Position numbers and translations under genes: made by a program | Part shown: piece after piece, positions 20,594 to 57,387 of the stretch | Numbering within the stretch: the stretch's first letter is position 1 | How the letters are laid out: every line of letters starts with the position of its first letter | Source of the DNA: Candidatus Saccharimonadales bacterium | GTDB lineage: Bacteria; Patescibacteriota; Saccharimonadia; Saccharimonadales; UBA10212 | NCBI GenBank assembly: GCA_035758565.1 | Contig: DASTXL010000001.1 | Coordinates: 267,242 to 331,241, forward strand | Direction of reading: 5' to 3' | Length of the DNA stretch: 64,000 nucleotides | Notes under the pieces: model-generated | Database searches by the model: none | Told to the model about the DNA's origin: nothing | Seen by the model: only the letters and a program-made list of their open reading frames with translations

Positions 20594-21091
20594 ATGAAAT
20601 GGCCATCTTGGATAAACTCCAGAAAATTTAGAGCTTGTTTGGTCGCAGTTTTAATCTTAGTTATTATTTTTGTTTCGCTATCGCACTCGCTGGCCAACAA
20701 AGCCAAAGACGAGTTCGTGGCTCTTTACGGTAATTTAAATCAGATAAACGGCTCGTTGGTGTGCGATCAAAGCCAGACTGGCAATCAGGATATTTATGAC
20801 GTTTTTTATAAGACAACAGCTAATCCAGAAAGCTACCTAGTCGCTACGGCTCAAAAAAAGGGTTACGGAATAGCTGCCGACCTCAGCTTAATAAATACGA
20901 TCTCTAAACAAAATAATCCAAGCATTCCATATAGTCGCTCTAATTTTTACCTTACTGGCACAAAGCAACAAAGTAGGCTGGATATACGTATCTTCCAGGC
21001 CGGCACCGTCAAAATAAGCTGTAATAATAATCAGAGCGTTCGAACTAACGCCAGCCAGCCGATAGTGGAAGTCAAGGTCACCAGGAATTAA
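20594..21091 (+). CDS. Hypothetical signal-anchored extracytoplasmic protein
   Basis: N-terminal TM/signal anchor, then a polar domain. No recognisable motif. Confidence 0.5.
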   Translation: MKWPSWINSRKFRACLVAVLILVIIFVSLSHSLANKAKDEFVALYGNLNQINGSLVCDQSQTGNQDIYDVFYKTTANPESYLVATAQKKGYGIAADLSLINTISKQNNPSIPYSRSNFYLTGTKQQSRLDIRIFQAGTVKISCNNNQSVRTNASQPIVEVKVTRN

Positions 21092-21231
21092 AATTTTCGC
21101 GGCGCGCCGGCGACTTTTAGGTGCTTATTTTGAGTGCTTGAGCTAAGCGTCGGCGAAGGACGGACGGGCCGTATTTAAATACAGTGAGGAGTACTGGAGC
21201 CGACAACAAAGCACGGTGCCAAAATAAGCGG

Positions 21232-22920
21232 CTAAAAACGCTGGCGGATGTGGGACATAGAATAGTCCCAGCTAGCGTCGGCTTTTTTGTGCGGATTAAA
21301 GATATTATCCGGATCGCAAATCTTTTTGGTTTGGCGAAATAGGTCAACAATTTTCTTGCCATACATAGCCTCCAGCCAAGGGCCGCGAATCAAGCCATCG
21401 TTGTGCTCGGCCGTGATGGAACCATGGTAGTGCAAGACAAGATTATTGACTTCGCGCATAGCTGGCTCTAGTTTTTTACGCTCGCTTGGGATCTCGATCT
21501 TCATCAGTGGAATAACATGAAAGTTACCGTCACCCATATGACCGGCAATTGTTGCGAACAATTTATACTTTTTAATGATTTTACGCAGACGCGGTAAAAA
21601 TTCAGTCAGGTATTCTGGTCGAACGATAAAATCATCAATGAACGGCGCAGTGTGCTTGTCCTTAACTTTGGATCTGAGCAGCTGGAAGCTATAGCGGCGC
21701 ATTAGCCAGAACTTTTCGGCTTTGCCTTCAGTCGGATCTTCTTCGAAACCGTTGATTTCGTAGCGAGCTCTGTATTTTCTAAGGTCGGCGTGCAAGGCTT
21801 TGACCTTTTCGCGGACTTCATCCTCTGTTTCGCCGTTGAACTCAACCATCAAAATAAGCTTAGGAATACCACGCCAAGCATGCATATGCAGTCCTGTAGG
21901 CGCCAGACTGAGTAGTAGCTTGACCACTCCACCCCAGCCGAGCATTTTATGAAAACTTGGCATAAAACGCATGCCTAGCCACATCGTGGCATCATCGAAT
22001 GATTCAAAGGTAGCCGGCTTGTGCTCGAGCACCTTCGGTATGACTTCGCCCAGATCGTCTATATCCTTCATAAATAAAACCAACAGGCCGGAATGCGGGC
22101 AGCTAGGGACCAGCTTGAAGTGTATATCTGTGACCAGCCCGAGCGTGCCTTGGGCGCCGCAGATAAGTTGGGTCAGATCAAAAACACCGGTCTCGCGGTT
22201 CCATACATCCCACAAGTAATAACCTGCTGAATTCTTGGACACGTGCGGACGAGCAGCCTGGATAGCGTCATAATTACCATCTAAAAGAATGAAGAGTTGA
22301 CGATAAAGCTGGCCCTCAAAATCTTTTTGTTTCATTTTTTTATCAAGCTCGGCTTTGCTCAATGGTTTGACTGTTCGTTCGACTCCATCAGCAAAAACAA
22401 CCTTGAGCTCCGTAACAAAATTCTGCGTCTTACCGTATTCTAAAGATTTCTCACCACCAGAGTTGTTATTAACCATACCTCCAACGCTGGCTAGGTCACG
22501 GCTGGCCGGATAAGTCGGCATTAGGGCCTTGTGCTTTAGCGTTTCCGGTTCAAAATCTTTATAAAGTACGCCAGGCTGGACTTGGGCCGATGAGGCGCTG
22601 ACTTTTTCGATCTTGGTAAAATATTTGCGGAAATCAACAATCACCGATTCGCTTATGGCACCGCCACTCATATCCGTGCCGGCACTACGGGCAGTCAAGC
22701 TGAGATCGGGCATTTTATCCTTCAGCTCGCTGACTGTGGCGACAAGCTTTTCAATGTCCGAGCCGTTTTTTGGCGCCACAACCAGCTGCGGGACTAATTC
22801 AAATAAAGAGGCGTCGTGGCTGAATAGTTCGCGAGTCTCCTCGGAATTATCAAAATCACCAGAAAAACCTTTTTGTTTTAACGCTTGTTCAAATTGTTCC
22901 ATTCCTCTTAAGCTTACCAC
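21232..22920 (-). CDS. FAD-linked oxidase (GlcD / D-lactate dehydrogenase family)
   Basis: FAD-binding PCMH-type N-terminus (PKNGSDIEKLV, ARSAGTDMSGGA) and C-terminal HGSITAEHNDG. Confidence 0.8.
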   Translation of the reverse strand: MVSLRGMEQFEQALKQKGFSGDFDNSEETRELFSHDASLFELVPQLVVAPKNGSDIEKLVATVSELKDKMPDLSLTARSAGTDMSGGAISESVIVDFRKYFTKIEKVSASSAQVQPGVLYKDFEPETLKHKALMPTYPASRDLASVGGMVNNNSGGEKSLEYGKTQNFVTELKVVFADGVERTVKPLSKAELDKKMKQKDFEGQLYRQLFILLDGNYDAIQAARPHVSKNSAGYYLWDVWNRETGVFDLTQLICGAQGTLGLVTDIHFKLVPSCPHSGLLVLFMKDIDDLGEVIPKVLEHKPATFESFDDATMWLGMRFMPSFHKMLGWGGVVKLLLSLAPTGLHMHAWRGIPKLILMVEFNGETEDEVREKVKALHADLRKYRARYEINGFEEDPTEGKAEKFWLMRRYSFQLLRSKVKDKHTAPFIDDFIVRPEYLTEFLPRLRKIIKKYKLFATIAGHMGDGNFHVIPLMKIEIPSERKKLEPAMREVNNLVLHYHGSITAEHNDGLIRGPWLEAMYGKKIVDLFRQTKKICDPDNIFNPHKKADASWDYSMSHIRQRF

Positions 22921-36386: not shown

Positions 36387-36945
36387 AGACTATAAAACAA
36401 AAGAGTCAGTAATCGTTGTTTACACTGGCGAGGGCAAAGGAAAAACCAGCGCCAGCGTAGGTTTGTTAGCCCGATCCTTGGGCAGCGGCTGGAGGGCTGC
36501 CTACATTCAATTCATTAAGCATTGGAACGTCGGCGAGCACGACTTTATTCACAAAATCGAACCGGTTTTTGGCGATAAACTCTTCTTTTATAAAGGCGGC
36601 AAAGGCTTTTACGATGCCGGAGATTTGAGCGCCAAAAACGTCTCAGAAGAAGAACATAAAAAGGCCGCTCAAAGCACTTACGATATGGCTTACAAACTAG
36701 CCACTAGCGGTGACTATGATATTGTGATTTGCGACGAAATAAACAACGCCGCCCATCATGGCCTAATAACCAAAGACGATTTAAAGAAACTTATTAAAGA
36801 CAAGGCAGAGAAGACCAGCCTGTGCCTAACTGGCCGCGATTTTCCGGAAGAGCTGCTGCCGCTCACCGACATCGCTACTAACATGACCAAAATCAAACAT
36901 CACTTCGACGATAAGTTTCTGGCGAACAAGGGTATTGATTTCTAG
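36376..36945 (+). CDS. cobO: Cob(I)yrinic acid a,c-diamide / cob(I)alamin adenosyltransferase (CobA/CobO/BtuR family)
   Basis: VIVVYTGEGKGKTSASVGLLARSLGSGWRAAYIQFIKHWNVGE matches the P-loop family signature. Confidence 0.8.
   Translation: MAFEDYKTKESVIVVYTGEGKGKTSASVGLLARSLGSGWRAAYIQFIKHWNVGEHDFIHKIEPVFGDKLFFYKGGKGFYDAGDLSAKNVSEEEHKKAAQSTYDMAYKLATSGDYDIVICDEINNAAHHGLITKDDLKKLIKDKAEKTSLCLTGRDFPEELLPLTDIATNMTKIKHHFDDKFLANKGIDF
36893..36944 (+). repeat. Direct repeat copy 1 (last 52 nt of cobO)
   Basis: tcaaacatcacttcgacgataagtttctggcgaacaagggtattgatttcta is identical to 37024-37075. Confidence 0.95.
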
Positions 36946-37023: not shown

Positions 37024-37075
37024 TCAAACATCACTTCGACGATAAGTTTCTGGCGAACAAGGGTATTGATTTCTA
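37024..37075 (+). repeat. Direct repeat copy 2 (orphan copy of the cobO 3' end)
   Basis: 52/52 identical to 36893-36944. The next base makes a TAA stop where copy 1 has TAG. Its end overlaps the stop codon of the convergent ParB-like gene. Confidence 0.95.
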
Positions 37076-46846: not shown

Positions 46847-46932
46847 GGGTGAGTGGCGGAACTGGTATACGCGCACGACTCAAAATCGTGTTCCTTTAAG
46901 GAGTGTGGGTTCGATTCCCACCTCACCCACCA
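46847..46932 (+). tRNA. tRNA-Leu (anticodon CAA), class II with long variable arm, CCA encoded
   Basis: Acceptor gggtgag/ctcaccc; anticodon arm cacga-ctCAAaa-tcgtg; T arm gtggg-ttcgatt-cccac. TATAAT promoter at 46831-46836. Confidence 0.9.
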
Positions 46933-47004: not shown

Positions 47005-48243
47005 ATGGCTGACGAAGATGAACAAAAGCATAACGACCAATTTGACGCAGCGCTACCGCTGCCTATAAACCATAGCCAAAAACCACAAGCAGCAAGCAGT
47101 AGCGGCGGCTCCGATGCTACGGCTGACTTGATTCGCAAAAAGATCGAGGCTGCCTACGCTAAAGAGCCAAGCGCCCAAGCGGAAGAAGAAGAACTAGAAA
47201 AAACAGCCAGCAAAAAACTCTCTAAGCACCAAAGGTTTATATTAGACCTCACTAGCTCCGGCAAACCTTTGCACGAAGTGCAGATAGCCTGGCACGAATA
47301 TTACGCTGCGCTGCCAGATAACCAAAAACACGAGGTATGGGAAGAGTTCTATAAGACCCATGCCGAAACATCACATTATCAGGCAATCACCCACACTCAT
47401 AAAGATCAAAAATCGCATGCCGCGACCGAAGAAAAAAGGTCGCTACCGCCAACTACTACCGCAAGCCGATCAATACAAAACTTCCGTAACTCACTAAAAA
47501 CGCCAGAACAGCGGGCTGTGGGAGTCAAAAAACAAAGTCCGCTGCACTCAATTCTATTTGGATTGGCCATAGGTTGCATAGTGCTGGTGATCTTTCTCTT
47601 CAGCTTCTTTAACGAGCGCTTCATCACTCCTTTTATTCAGCCTAGCCGCGACGTTAGCGCTACGCCGCTAATCATTGGCACTCAAGCCGTTGGACAGTCT
47701 CCGCAGTTAATAATTCCAAAAATAAACGTGCAGATTCCAATCATTTACGCCACCGATAACAGCGATAATACGATTGAGAATGACCTAGAAAGCGGTGTGG
47801 TGCATTACGCCGATACGGCCATGCCGGGCCAAGACGGCAACTTAGTTATTTTTGGCCACTCGTCAAATAACATTTTTAACCCCGGAAAATACAAGTTTGC
47901 TTTTGTGTTGCTGTCTAGGCTAGAGAATGGCGATACATTTTATGTCGATAATGGCGGCAAGCGCTACACTTACGAGGTTTTTGGCAAGAAGATTGTACCG
48001 CCGAGCGACGTCAATGTGCTGGGACCAGTAGCAAACAAGACGGCTACTGCCACTCTGATTACTTGCGATCCGCCAGGCACCAGCCTCAACCGTCTGGTAG
48101 TTAGCGCAGATCAAATCGACCCTAATCCCACCTCGAACATAGCCGCTTCGGCAGATACCGGAAAAGCCGCGCAAAACGCCAAAGCTATAGCCGGCAACGG
48201 ACCAACACTGTGGCAAAGGCTCTGGCACGCCATCTGGGATTAA
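47005..48243 (+). CDS. Sortase-family transpeptidase with a long (~180 aa) N-terminal cytoplasmic extension
   Basis: TM helix ILFGLAIGCIVLVIFLFSFF; catalytic His LVIFGHSS; TLITCDPPG (TLxTC); a downstream Arg. Confidence 0.75.
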   Translation: MADEDEQKHNDQFDAALPLPINHSQKPQAASSSGGSDATADLIRKKIEAAYAKEPSAQAEEEELEKTASKKLSKHQRFILDLTSSGKPLHEVQIAWHEYYAALPDNQKHEVWEEFYKTHAETSHYQAITHTHKDQKSHAATEEKRSLPPTTTASRSIQNFRNSLKTPEQRAVGVKKQSPLHSILFGLAIGCIVLVIFLFSFFNERFITPFIQPSRDVSATPLIIGTQAVGQSPQLIIPKINVQIPIIYATDNSDNTIENDLESGVVHYADTAMPGQDGNLVIFGHSSNNIFNPGKYKFAFVLLSRLENGDTFYVDNGGKRYTYEVFGKKIVPPSDVNVLGPVANKTATATLITCDPPGTSLNRLVVSADQIDPNPTSNIAASADTGKAAQNAKAIAGNGPTLWQRLWHAIWD

Positions 48244-48270
48244 CTAAATCTGCAGGATTAAATAATTTAC

Positions 48271-48417
48271 CGCTTGAGCGCAGAACGAGGAAGAAGCGAG
48301 CAACGGACCGAGATGTATTTGCATACATAGAGGGAGTAGCGGAGCTTCTGACAAAGTTATACGCCAAGAGCACTAGCGGAGCGGCCGGCTTCGCCGGGCG
48401 GCAGGCTAGTGCGGCGG
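48271..48417 (+). repeat. Paralogous ~148-nt element, copy A (convergent intergenic region)
   Basis: 89/148 positions identical to 51260-51408 with a single 1-nt indel. Hairpin ATGTAT-ttgc-ATACAT at 48312-48327. Conserved block aagagcactagcggagcggccggc. Confidence 0.8.
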
Positions 48418-48428
48418 TAAATTATTTA

Positions 48429-49931
48429 TTATTGCTTAGGCAAATCGTTGCCGGCACGCATATCAACATTCACCAAATTAAGCGTGCCGTCGCTTTTGGC
48501 TTGCAAAGTTATCATATGGTTATAGTCGCTGCTGAACAGTGCGCCGCTGGGATCGGTAGTAGGCACTAATGGCTGCTGGTTGGTAGAGTCGTAATCCGTA
48601 ACATAAACTTTGCCGTCAGACTCGCCAATCAGCCGATGGCCATCCATCCAAGTCATAGGACCAGCCAGCGGAGCATCCAGACGATACTGATAATTGTCTT
48701 TGGTTTCTATGTCGAATACTCCAAAGCTTTGGCCGTTTTCAACTTCTACAAAACGAGCGTTATTAGAAAAGCCAACTTTTGTAGCGCCCAACACGTTAAG
48801 GGCCAGGGTAGGGATAGCCTTGCCGATGCTTTTGTTATTAATGTCGCTCAAAGGATCCTCATATATATTTACTCTTTTGTCGGTATCACTGCCGGCGATG
48901 TAGTACCAGTGGCCGGAATACTGCGCTGCATCAATTAAATAAGTGCTGCCGGCAGTAAGGGTATAGAGCGGGTAAGTCTTGCCGTTATTCCAAATCCTAG
49001 CCTGAACTTCGCCGCTTGGCATATTTTGGTCGGTGATGTAGGTCATAAGATCTGTGCCATAAGGTTTAAAGGCCAGAACTTTTTTGAGCATTGGGGTGGC
49101 CAGCGTGCCCTTACTCACATCGCCGAGCTGCACAGTTTGGTTGGCTTGGCTATAAACATATAGCTGGTCGACTTTCTTATTAAACAAAGCAACCTCGTCG
49201 GGAACAATATTAAAGATTTTGTTTACGTTAAATGATTGCTCGGGCTTGTTGCGGTTAAAGACGATATATTCGCTGCCACCGCTATAAGTGTGCTTGAGTA
49301 AGACGTTATTGTTGTCAGTAGACCATTCAACAACGCTTAAATTGGCCCTGGCGCCATCATCTCCGGATAGCAACCCCTCGGGAATACTAACTTGGGTTGG
49401 AGTTTGGCTTTCGGTTTTTGACAGAGCGTTTAAGTCAAGCTGGTCAAAGGTAACCTGTTTTGAGTCGCTATCAGGTCGCTGGATCAAGAGCCAACGCTGG
49501 CTGGGACTCTCGGTTATTAAGGCGGGTTGCGTCGCATAGTTAGTTAGAGTTGTGGTGCGAAACTTCACTGGATATAAGAAGGGGTAAACAAAGCGGTCGA
49601 TGCTGCTTTCTTGAAGCGTAAAGCTGCGCTGCCAATCGCGGTAACCAGATTTTTTGAGGGTTAGAGTATAGTCGCCGGCCGGGATTACCAGCCTGGCAGA
49701 AGTGGTAGCATTCCAATTTTTGCCGTTTAGGTAAATTTCCGCGCCACCCGGTTTAGAATCCACAAACAGCAGGCCGTTTTGGATGATCTGGCCTTTCTTA
49801 TTTATGCCATAGCCGTTAGCTCCGTAAGCCAAAATCACGGTAGCCAGGCCTATGGCGATAGCCACAAGAACATAGCCTACGATTAAGCGTATTTTATGAG
49901 CGCGTCTTTTACGGGGGTCAAGAAAATCCAT
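48429..49931 (-). CDS. PEGA-domain surface protein, N-terminally anchored
   Basis: TM anchor; PEGA-like LFVDSKPGGAEIYLNG...GDYTLTLKKSGYRDW; large beta-rich C-terminal domain. Confidence 0.7.
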   Translation of the reverse strand: MDFLDPRKRRAHKIRLIVGYVLVAIAIGLATVILAYGANGYGINKKGQIIQNGLLFVDSKPGGAEIYLNGKNWNATTSARLVIPAGDYTLTLKKSGYRDWQRSFTLQESSIDRFVYPFLYPVKFRTTTLTNYATQPALITESPSQRWLLIQRPDSDSKQVTFDQLDLNALSKTESQTPTQVSIPEGLLSGDDGARANLSVVEWSTDNNNVLLKHTYSGGSEYIVFNRNKPEQSFNVNKIFNIVPDEVALFNKKVDQLYVYSQANQTVQLGDVSKGTLATPMLKKVLAFKPYGTDLMTYITDQNMPSGEVQARIWNNGKTYPLYTLTAGSTYLIDAAQYSGHWYYIAGSDTDKRVNIYEDPLSDINNKSIGKAIPTLALNVLGATKVGFSNNARFVEVENGQSFGVFDIETKDNYQYRLDAPLAGPMTWMDGHRLIGESDGKVYVTDYDSTNQQPLVPTTDPSGALFSSDYNHMITLQAKSDGTLNLVNVDMRAGNDLPKQ

Positions 49932-51193: not shown

Positions 51194-51259
51194 CGCCAAA
51201 GAGTTATTTAGCCTACAATTAAAGTTAATGATAGTTAGTTTTATTGCGCGCGTACTTTT

Positions 51260-51408
51260 CGCTTTAGTGCCGAGCAAGGCGATGGCGAGGAATGGACTGA
51301 GCCGTATATGAAATACGGCGAAGGAATGCCGCAACCAGCAACGCCGCCCGGCGCAAAGAGTACCGGCGGAGTGGCCGGCCCTGCCGACAAGCAGAGCGCT
51401 GCGGTGCG
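51260..51408 (+). repeat. Paralogous ~148-nt element, copy B (upstream of / overlapping the gltX 5' end)
   Basis: Homologous to 48271-48417. Hairpin CCGTAT-atgaa-ATACGG at 51302-51318 carries two compensatory base-pair changes relative to copy A. Confidence 0.8.
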
Positions 51409-52858
51409 TGGGCCGGTTCGGACTCGTTTTGCGCCTAGTCCAACAGGTTACTTACACGTCGGCGGTATTCGCACTGCGCTGTTTGCATGGCTTTTGGCCC
51501 GTCAAGCCGGCAACGATGGCCAGTTTATCTTGCGGCTTGAAGATACCGACAAAAATCGCGAGGTAACCGGCGCTGACGAGCACATAATGAAGAGCCTAAA
51601 AGCTCTGGGTCTTAATTACGACGAAGGCCCGGACATCGGCGGTCCGTTCGGGCCGTATCGCCAAAGCGAGCGCCTGGATATTTATAGAAAGTGGGCCGAA
51701 AAATTAATAAAGAAGGGCAGAGCCTATGCCGATCCTTATTCTCCAATCGAAGTTCAAGCTTTTAGAGAGCAAGCTCAAAAAGAAAAGCGCCCGTTTTTAT
51801 ATCGTGACCGTCGGCCAGAGAATCCGCCGAGATGGGACGGCAGTCAGCCTTTGCGTTTTAAGTCAGAGCCCAAAGCCTACGTCTGGCACGATGAAGTTAT
51901 GGGCGATCTTTCAACCGGGCCGGAAGTCATCGACGACTTTATTTTAATTAAATCCGATGGTTATCCAACCTATAACTTCGCTCACATAATTGACGATCTC
52001 GAAATGCAGATCAGCCATGTTATCCGTGGCCAGGAGTTCCTAGCCAGCATGCCGAACTACCTAAATCTTTACGAGGCATTGGGTATCGAGCGGCCTGTGC
52101 TGGCCACCATGCCGCACATTTTGGGCCCGGATGGCAATAAGAAACTATCTAAGCGTGATGGCGCTAAAGATGTGCTGGATTACATCCGTGAGGGCTATCT
52201 GCCAGACGCACTAGTTAACTTTATTGCCAGCCTGGGCTGGAATGACGGCACCGAGCAGGAAATTTTTAGCCGTAATGAACTTACCGAGAAATTCCGCCTG
52301 GATCATGTGCAGCGTAGCGGCGCCCGCTTTGATGAGCGTCGCTTAACCTGGATGAATGGACACTATATCCGGGAACTTTCTTTGAAAGAATTAGCCGAAA
52401 GAGCAGCCGACTTTTGGCCGGCCAAAGCCAAAGCAGCAGACGAAACTTACAAAAACGCCATTCTTGGCCTTGTGCAGGAACGTTTGAAATATTTTGCCGA
52501 ACTGCCAGAGCTTACCAGGTTTTTCTTTGAAGAGCCCGATACCTCAAACGTCAAAGAGTTATATAAAAATCCAGTCGACAAGCAACTCAAGAAAATTGAG
52601 TTTAGCGATTATAAGCCAATGCTCGACAAGGTAATTACAAAATTAGAAAACTCTGACTTTTCCGAAGATAACATTACGAACAGCCTCAACCAGCTTCTAG
52701 AAGAGTTAGGCACCAAACCCGGCGTTTTATTTGCCTTAGTCCGCATAGCTTTGACTGGGCAAACCAGTTCGCCGCAAATCTTTGGAACTTTGCACGTCTT
52801 GGGCCAAGAAAAGTCCATCAATAGACTTAAAAAAGCCGCTGAAACGCTGGCCAACTAA
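51308..52858 (+). CDS. gltX: Glutamate--tRNA ligase
   Basis: RTRFAPSPTGYLHVGGIRTALF (HIGH region) and KLSKRDG (KMSKS). The conserved core starts near GTG 51404 (MRGPVRTRF...). The 32 codons from ATG 51308 coincide with repeat copy B, so the true start is uncertain. Confidence 0.9.
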   Translation: MKYGEGMPQPATPPGAKSTGGVAGPADKQSAAVRGPVRTRFAPSPTGYLHVGGIRTALFAWLLARQAGNDGQFILRLEDTDKNREVTGADEHIMKSLKALGLNYDEGPDIGGPFGPYRQSERLDIYRKWAEKLIKKGRAYADPYSPIEVQAFREQAQKEKRPFLYRDRRPENPPRWDGSQPLRFKSEPKAYVWHDEVMGDLSTGPEVIDDFILIKSDGYPTYNFAHIIDDLEMQISHVIRGQEFLASMPNYLNLYEALGIERPVLATMPHILGPDGNKKLSKRDGAKDVLDYIREGYLPDALVNFIASLGWNDGTEQEIFSRNELTEKFRLDHVQRSGARFDERRLTWMNGHYIRELSLKELAERAADFWPAKAKAADETYKNAILGLVQERLKYFAELPELTRFFFEEPDTSNVKELYKNPVDKQLKKIEFSDYKPMLDKVITKLENSDFSEDNITNSLNQLLEELGTKPGVLFALVRIALTGQTSSPQIFGTLHVLGQEKSINRLKKAAETLAN

Positions 52859-54325: not shown

Positions 54326-54400
54326 GGTCCCATCGTCTAGCGGTTAGGACACTGGGTTCTCATCCCAGCAACAGGGGTTCGATTCCCCTTGGGATCACCA
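54326..54400 (+). tRNA. tRNA-Glu (anticodon CUC), CCA encoded
   Basis: Acceptor ggtccca/tgggatc; D arm gtct-agcggtta-ggac; anticodon arm ctggg-ttCTCat-cccag; T arm agggg-ttcgatt-cccct. Confidence 0.9.
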
Positions 54401-57281: not shown

Positions 57282-57296
57282 GGCGCCACCAGTGCA

Positions 57297-57320
57297 CCCC
57301 ACAAAGTAAACTTTGCGGGG
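57297..57320 (-). repeat. Hairpin family copy H2 (minus strand reads CCCCGCAAAGTTTACTTTGTGGGG)
   Basis: 22/24 identical to H1 (36995-37018). The two differences fall on paired positions (T-A becomes G-C). Not followed by a T-run on either strand. Confidence 0.8.
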
Positions 57321-57387
57321 AACCCCCGGGTTGTCGGCACAAGGTGGCAAAATCAGCCGCCTAGGCTGCCAAGAAAGGAATTCAACT

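Follow-up and report, generated by a model that had tools for sequence, protein, structure and literature searches.

A dispersed palindromic repeat with a branched, covarying fold in Saccharimonadales, probably mobile and similar in behavior to the Rickettsia palindromic elements

What fills nearly the whole of the short gap between two convergent genes of a Saccharimonadales bacterium, and how does it relate to a similar sequence 3 kb away that abuts gltX? The question arises in a window of 64,000 nt, the whole stretch of DNA analyzed (Candidatus Saccharimonadales bacterium, contig DASTXL010000001.1 of assembly GCA_035758565.1, positions 267,242 to 331,241), where an element named copy A (48259-48428, + strand) takes up 170 of the 185 nt that separate the 3′ ends of a sortase-domain gene and a PEGA-domain gene. 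The original prediction, made from the sequence alone, saw the likeness to copy B at the 5′ end of gltX and offered a small structured RNA family, a miniature mobile or repetitive extragenic palindrome (REP)-like element, or a relic of a duplicated gltX 5′ region. The reading favored here, with a probability of about 0.8, is that the element is a non-autonomous selfish mobile palindromic repeat of Saccharimonadales with behavior like that of the Rickettsia palindromic elements (RPEs). Its family is dispersed at unrelated sites and polymorphic in presence and absence, lives in minimal spacers at gene 3′ ends and inside protein-coding genes, there in the sense orientation and in a single stop-free frame, and is structurally constrained on one strand. 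The family is previously undescribed and joins RPE-like behavior in a new phylum to a branched, strongly covarying fold and unusual terminal stems.

Copy A and its closing stem

Copies A and B are similar on the same strand, as first noticed: 48271-48418 aligns with 51260-51405 at 61.7% identity over 149 columns (E ~7e-8 by BLASTN in a 128-kb search space; E 2.8e-7 by nhmmer), with all the blocks quoted at the time present in both (cgctt(g/t)ag, gcgag.aa.ggac.gag, aagag.ac..gcggag.ggccggc and tgcgg.g). When copy A is the sole nhmmer query there is no second match of comparable strength and one weak third match, later recognized as copy C. The covarying hairpin that had been pointed out is also real. 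At the tip of the long arm copy A has ATGTAT-TTGC-ATACAT (48313-48328) and copy B has the stem CCGTAT/ATACGG (51302-51318); two pairs are changed and both are still complementary, and the sole indel between the copies falls in the loop, TTGC in copy A and ATGAA in copy B.

The extent first proposed, ~148 nt, describes the aligned core and falls short of the element; in copy A a perfect 14-bp stem, P1, closes it at both ends. The 5′ arm of P1, TAAATAATTTACCG (48259-48272), is the perfect reverse complement of the 3′ arm, CGGTAAATTATTTA (48415-48428), and the latter ends one base before the PEGA stop codon (48429-48431). The P2 arm, a long imperfect hairpin with conserved internal loops, occupies 48273-48368 according to the consensus structure, the per-pair counts and the alignment to covariance model R1, and the P3 arm, GCACTAGC..GGCCGGCTTCGCCGGG..GCTAGTGC, occupies 48370-48412 according to the fold, the consensus structure and the covariance-model alignment. 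The whole 170 nt adopt a Y-shaped fold of -75 kcal/mol (z = -6.8; 0 of 200 shuffles fold as well), with 53 of the 56 consensus pairs intact. A search across the window for the terminal 13-mer of copy A, as a possible donor flank, gave no other occurrence and nothing above chance.

A fold conserved on one strand

Nearly every copy, when folded alone, gives the same three-way junction, in an element of ~170-176 nt with almost no unpaired junction strands. P1 is ~13-16 bp long; its junction-proximal end is conserved (GCAC/GTGC or CG/CG) and is followed by ~13 bp that differ in each copy. P2 has a conserved base, CTTG/CAAG, then internal loops and a terminal hairpin, GCCGTAY-N5-RTACGGT, while P3 has a variable stem and a loop close to CTGGCTCTGCCAG. 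The G+C content of the element is 60-64% as against 48% for the window. Hammerhead, K-turn and sarcin-ricin motifs were considered for the P2 loops and rejected by eye, with few unpaired junction strands and no ribozyme family scoring.

Covariation extends far beyond the one hairpin seen originally. RNAalifold, applied to an alignment of 46 full-length copies (A5), gives 56 consensus pairs, 51 of which have compensatory double changes. Standard pairs account for 90.6% of the A5 cells, versus 65.8% with shuffled partners (the observed value is reached in 0 of 500 shuffles) and 32-42% when the columns are slid by 1-3, and the covariation score is 0.692 versus 0.231 for the control. G.T wobbles outnumber A.C mismatches 183:58, or 119:57 without two conserved wobble columns, and the excess is present in genic (47:22) and intergenic (31:11) copies alike; therefore folding belongs to a single, constant strand of the element and does not depend on how the neighboring gene is oriented. 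What is conserved is nucleotides and structure, since column entropy is nearly flat across codon positions (1.02, 0.98 and 1.12 bits), and the encoded peptide would be a by-product.

Copies in other genomes

The picture of an orphan with a single partner does not survive. Scanned from end to end with the covariance model and no filters, the window yields exactly three copies: A (158 bits, model positions 1-176), B (129 bits) and a third, C (59 bits), at ~21105-21247. A family profile made from the three, run on 80 loci around gltX (one-per-species genomes, 21-kb windows), detected 8 further copies in 7 of the 80 loci, and a scan of metagenome contigs with the DNA pattern GAGCCGTAYANNNNRTACGGYRAAGG added 37 loci. 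The search for further copies in related genomes that had been proposed at the outset was thus amply rewarded, with 57 copies, 53 of them distinct, recovered by iterated nhmmer over the window and the 117 loci (1.59 Mb). Several contigs hold 2-3 copies, as the window holds 3 in 64 kb, and all hosts found are Saccharimonadales metagenome-assembled genomes (MAGs). A peptide-pattern scan of viral contigs gave 28 pattern matches, 0 of them confirmed. A side observation concerns the 1.9-kb contig L085, where three copies in both orientations stand before two type IV pilin-like genes (N-termini GFTLVE and GFAIVE).

At the protein level, a HMMER profile of the element peptide compared with 1.84 billion representative proteins matches 257 clusters at E <= 1e-3, 90 of them at E <= 1e-10. 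About two thirds of the matches are open reading frames (ORFs) of 50-75 codons in which the element itself has been called as a gene, the remainder being long proteins with the element internal or N-terminal. A word-indexed protein search with the same profile returned 8 short ORFs only; the long hosts become visible by exhaustive HMMER. The family corresponds to no known RNA family: in a Rfam 15 scan of the whole window only two tRNAs reach the gathering score, and permissive scans of copies A and B (E up to 10) return snoRNA and lncRNA matches at chance level, none better than E = 1.8. A full-text literature search yielded no report of MITE-like (miniature inverted-repeat transposable element), RPE-like or palindromic repeats in Saccharibacteria, Patescibacteria or the Candidate Phyla Radiation (CPR).

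Empty sites and in-frame insertions

Evidence for insertion comes from relatives that have the site without the element, and together with the occurrence of copies at non-homologous sites in many genomes it upholds the suggestion of a miniature mobile element. L024 and L073 have the sortase and PEGA stop codons in direct contact at the site of copy A (TAG|CTA, a 0-nt gap), and the spacer now held by copy A was probably of zero length originally. At the site of copy C, L118-L120 have a 0-nt or 12-nt gap or a different neighbor. Within genes, the GltX of L056 has a 58-residue insertion absent from 12 orthologs, the exonuclease III of L027 has one of 56 residues that 6 orthologs, among them the window's own xth, lack, and a TylF-like methyltransferase in L014 has one of 58 residues relative to its orthologs. 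Genic copies rule out the notion that one P1 arm is always pre-existing host DNA, since their inserted 168-174 nt amount to roughly the complete distance from P1 to P1; for the outer stem of copy C, by contrast, the notion is correct.

By simple ORF calling 18 of the 57 matches lie inside long ORFs, always sense and always in the same stop-free frame of the element. These copies add ~56-58 residues, often between domains or at N-termini, and the peptide reads roughly ..LD..QGAGEQRTEPYMKYGEGAAQ.ATQQ.AKS.GG.AGSA..Q... The hosts, identified by Pfam, are diverse. GltX has an internal copy in L056 and 5′-end copies in the window, L025 and L084, all sense, and YchF has sense copies at two different positions in two genomes. 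The dihydrouridine synthase Dus of L103 (1090-2463; metagenome contig Ga0136558_1010083) has two separate in-frame copies, and its Pfam Dus domain is split into two stretches. In FolD the copy lies between the two domains and in a pseudouridine synthase between the S4 and catalytic domains; a Y-family polymerase has copies at two sites. In-frame copies are also found in RNase J, a Mur ligase, the L027 exonuclease III (ExoIII), a response regulator, HAD hydrolases, several methyltransferases (PrmC twice), a DNA methylase and a malic enzyme. Among the 57 copies none that is genic and antisense is credible, the four such calls being short or over-extended ORFs, as with the L085 pilin gene whose real start is downstream. 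Those subfamilies whose P2 loop contains a stop codon (ATGTAA or AAATAG; ..TATATGTAA.. and ..TACAAATAG..) occur only between genes.

The argument that the element makes no peptide, first drawn from the lack of a start codon in copy A, stands for copy A, which is non-coding because it is frameshifted and has stops relative to the family frame, and fails for the family, which is read through as protein in many host genes. A 119-codon ORF at 48210-48569 that spans copy A has no Pfam match, overlaps both neighbors and is spurious.

Copy B and the start of gltX

Copy B (51246-51421, + strand) retains 44 of the 56 pairs, with many broken in P1 and P3, and its fold is less convincing than that of copy A (z = -1.5). 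It is open throughout in the reading frame of gltX (glutamyl-tRNA synthetase; 51308-52858, + strand; Pfam tRNA-synt_1c at residues 37-348), for which there are three candidate starts, ATG 51308, which sits in the P2 loop of copy B, ATG 51326 and GTG 51404. The conserved GltX core begins at ~51413 and orthologs begin 2-3 residues before VRTRF, so GTG 51404 is favored and the start is probably near there and not at an upstream ATG. Copy B is thereby either the 5′ untranslated region or an N-terminal extension of gltX. The best GltX relatives, up to 72% identical, are all from Saccharibacteria MAGs.

Its nearest relative is L084b, a copy at the same site before gltX in a locus that shares with the window the order sortase, PEGA, DUF4367, gltX, DUF3048; because of this common syntenic site, copy B is probably an old shared insertion, by now partly decayed. 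That copy A is not the leader of any gene was correctly stated, and copy B is not a gltX-specific leader either. A T-box or other gltX leader was considered for it and rejected, with no Rfam match and with the same element present in unrelated genes and spacers.

Copy C and its borrowed stem

Copy C (~21105-21247, + strand; found by nhmmer and, with a 44-position deletion, by the covariance model) lies in a second convergent gap and is a short variant with P1 and P2 (fold z = -4.5), a P3-less derivative like those of L104, L088/L106 and L107. Its outer 3′ stem (CTAAAAACGCTGGCGG) is formed by the stop and last five codons of an FAD-binding oxidoreductase gene (21232-22920, - strand). That sequence is the native gene end, as all 120 of the 120 orthologs retrieved end in ..HIR(E/Q/D)(K/H/R)F. 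Because the 3′ arm is native, it is host coding sequence that the outer 5′ arm repeats in inverted form, which suggests that template switching can extend the palindrome into its flanks; alternatively, host sequence could have been copied at insertion. At 21088-21120, directly after the stop codon of the + strand gene (21089-21091), stands AAAATTTTCGCGG, resembling the FAD-oxidoreductase end in the empty-site locus L118 (CTAAAATTTTTCGCGAA), and it is followed by the inverted copy of the present gene end. This region is possibly a relic of the target together with an inverted duplicate.

Ends, flanks and orientation

Several features sit badly with a simple parasite and weigh against the reading of the element as one. 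Its terminal stems are without conserved sequence, unlike classical terminal inverted repeats (TIRs): the outer 13 bp of P1 show ~30% identity between copies, the random level, even where the P2-mid helix is ~90% identical (L014a/b, L089a/b, L116a/L095), and yet own-arm P1 duplexes average -27.6 kcal/mol versus -18.6 for cross-paired arms. No consistent target-site duplication (TSD) and no repeat of fixed length was found, and the statistical signal is marginal (own flanks score 4.96 versus 4.62 cross-paired, p = 0.047), clear flanking direct repeats of 13-16 nt being present only at L101 (13/16) and L084b (11/13), to which TCCGGA at L027 may be added. Neither the orientation bias, in which tandem spacers between co-directional genes hold the element antisense 11 times and sense once, nor the stop-codon overlap, in which at 16 distinct intergenic loci the stop codon of the opposite-strand (convergent) gene lies inside or at the very end of the P1 3′ arm, is predicted by purely random insertion.

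A further difficulty is the orthologous pair L083 (1499-1675) and L100, where a 136-nt core is 96.3% identical (5 differences) between flanks of ~80%. It is the most conserved 136 nt in 2.4 kb of 78.5% overall identity, above the flanking PrmC-like and HtrA-like genes, and hints that a resident copy has been under selection or that insertion has recurred, more than a purely inert parasite would lead one to expect. The outer 5′ arm of this pair, at 82%, diverges like the flanks, and all three P1 differences are uncompensated. At another site, occupied in both L108 and L084a, P1 changes are compensated. In addition, no transposase, reverse transcriptase or HUH gene linked to any copy was found, nor a near-identical parent-daughter pair among the copies, and because of these two absences mobility now under way is something we only infer.

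Intergenic copies have A/T-rich 5′ flanks that would give U-rich tails on the opposite strand, and may by this token have a terminator-like side effect. An intrinsic or mobile (SPRITE-like) terminator as the identity of the element was rejected: a terminator scan of the copy A gap finds no canonical intrinsic terminator. Given that gap without a terminator, copy A itself may serve as an incidental barrier for two convergent transcripts, a predicted role.

How it might move and what else it might be

A mobile palindromic repeat of this sort would be moved in trans by a putative enzyme recognizing the conserved P2 and junction on a folded single strand, either single-stranded DNA or RNA. P1 would juxtapose both ends, and the ends would be set by structure and distance and not by terminal sequence. 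It is tempting to go further and to propose a new kind of structure-defined mobile element, in which a fixed helix length from the three-way junction would set the ends, host DNA would serve as template for a new outer helix upon each insertion or later, and some resident copies may have been domesticated. Re-templating is brought to mind by the random outer P1, the inverted gene end at copy C, the 5′ arm of L083/L100 and the stop-codon overlap at 16 loci, and domestication may explain conservation above that of neighboring genes, though the three-part proposal taken as a whole is speculative and on present evidence unlikely to be right in full. Analogies to retrons, diversity-generating retroelements and the bridge RNAs of IS110 were also entertained and dropped, there being no adjacent reverse transcriptase or recombinase gene and copies being inside housekeeping genes.

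The most serious competitor to a selfish element is that the copies are structured RNAs with a function, or RNA elements that the host has exapted as 3′-end stabilizers, terminators or translation regulators, with structure kept for the benefit of the cell. The small structured RNA family of the original prediction is right in so far as the structure is conserved, covarying and strand-specific; the strength of that covariation, the 96% identity of the L083/L100 copy within surroundings of 78.5%, the compensated P1 changes at the L108/L084a site, the position of intergenic copies directly after stop codons and the lack of a canonical terminator in the copy A gap all speak for such a role. Yet a free-standing RNA gene is a poor fit for copies that are in frame in many unrelated essential genes and so are necessarily translated. 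Moreover, the closest relatives manage without the element at the A and C sites with 0-nt gaps, only 7 of the 80 loci have a copy, the P1 differences of L083/L100 are uncompensated, and even at E = 10 there is no Rfam match, so that the chances of this explanation are judged to be slim. Slimmer still are those of a mobile protein-coding module, in which a ~55-residue peptide (..QGAGEQRTEPYMKYGEG..AKS..GSA..Q..) is the selected unit and the palindromic DNA secondary. Recognition of the peptide in 257 protein clusters, and the adherence of genic copies to one frame at N-termini or inter-domain linkers, are what it would predict. Against this, variability at third codon positions hardly exceeds that at the first and second, compensatory stem changes freely alter amino acids, many copies, A and C included, are frameshifted or stopped and lie between genes or antisense to them, and some two thirds of the protein matches are the short ORFs on the element alone.

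There remains the idea that a segmental duplication of the gltX 5′ region left copy A behind as a decaying remnant, or that A and B are both gltX-specific leaders. In its favor, only 3 kb separate the two copies, which share a strand, and B lies directly against gltX. The nearest sequences to copy A come, however, from other metagenomes (L095 at 72%), and 19 copies belonging to other genomes resemble it more than does copy B, which ranks 20th at 60%. As the family occurs in dozens of unrelated contexts, the similarity between A and B stops exactly at the element ends, and no T-box or other leader family matches, this last explanation can be set aside almost entirely.

Surroundings and other features of the window

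The convergent setting of copy A is as originally described, the sortase-domain gene (Pfam PF04203) being at 47005-48243 on the + strand and the PEGA-domain gene (PF08308) at 48429-49931 on the - strand. Just upstream of the sortase gene is tRNA-Leu(CAA) at 46847-46932, and tRNA-Glu(CTC) is at 54326-54400, ~1.5 kb downstream of gltX; the two are the only Rfam and ARAGORN matches in the window. The position homologous to that of copy A in L051 (1686-1811) has another spacer, an A+T-rich palindrome-like sequence of 126 nt (CAATGGACGAATG...CATTCATTGAACATTG) that is outside the family. Elsewhere in the window a perfect 52-nt direct repeat, at 36893-36944 and 37024-37075, covers the final codons and the stop of an ORF on the + strand. 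The repeats flank 79 nt with a GC-clamped hairpin, CCCCGCAAATTTTAATTTGTGGGG, and a related hairpin in inverted orientation is present at 57296-57325. The arrangement resembles an insertion accompanied by a long target duplication, or else an att-type scar.

Comparison with known systems

Bacterial MITEs such as Correia/NEMIS, ERIC and RUP are, like the Saccharimonadales element, non-autonomous and shorter than 200 bp. Their transcripts give stable stem-loops closed by 5′-3′ pairing, some are fused to ORFs and some act on neighboring mRNAs, points that are counted among the likenesses. The present element differs in being without conserved TIR sequence, TA termini, A+T-richness or a consistent TSD, no parent insertion sequence with matching ends was seen, and its structural covariation is far above what the model of a TIR bound by transposase needs. 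With outer P1 identity at the random ~30% and no insertion sequence seen, a classical MITE was rejected.

REP and REPIN elements, mobilized by RAYT, and elements of the IS200/IS605 type involve recognition of a folded single strand, are strand-specific, leave no TSD and are found after gene 3′ ends. The element here is likewise strand-specific, shows no consistent TSD and is located after gene 3′ ends, and recognition of a folded strand would be a further likeness. According to PMC3733652, REPs measure 20-40 bp, carry conserved GTAG/CGTC ends and lie only outside genes. The element under discussion is instead conserved in its interior and variable at its ends and is often inserted within genes, and no Y1/HUH gene was seen near the copies; at ~170 nt and with so many intragenic copies it was not taken to be a REP or REPIN.

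The closest parallel is with the RPEs, which, in the accounts of Ogata et al. (2000, 2002) as summarized in PMC2229807 and PMC10969869, are 105-146 bp long, with a 12-bp TIR, an uncertain TSD and in-frame fusions to ORFs. Both are short dispersed palindromic repeats with a terminal stem of ~12-13 bp. Both are found in spacers as well as joined in frame to conserved housekeeping genes, where the peptide frame is always the same, neither has a clear TSD or an identified mobilizing enzyme, and both have as hosts bacteria with small, reduced genomes. With multiple copies at non-homologous sites, a stable palindrome with a terminal stem and in-frame insertion absent from orthologs, the element matches the RPE functional class point by point as that class is there described, the likeness being one of described properties and not of sequences compared with RPE families. 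The same summaries treat protein-coding palindromic repeats as a peculiarity of Rickettsia. If the present case is confirmed, selfish palindromes tolerated in essential enzymes would have arisen independently in a second ultra-small, reduced-genome lineage, and they would explain some lineage-specific insertions and N-terminal extensions in CPR proteins, as well as many metagenome ‘hypothetical proteins’ of 50-75 residues that are the element read as an ORF.

The differences from RPEs are instructive too. The hosts are Saccharimonadales (CPR) and not Alphaproteobacteria, the length is ~170-176 nt as against the 105-146 nt given for RPEs in those summaries, and the fold is a branched three-way junction where RPEs are there portrayed as a single stem-loop. 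The element is also G+C-rich (60-64% as against 48% for the genome) and its terminal stems differ in each copy. If confirmed, the combination of strong covariation with such odd ends provides a large and tractable data set on how elements of this kind move, a question that is also posed by the RPEs.

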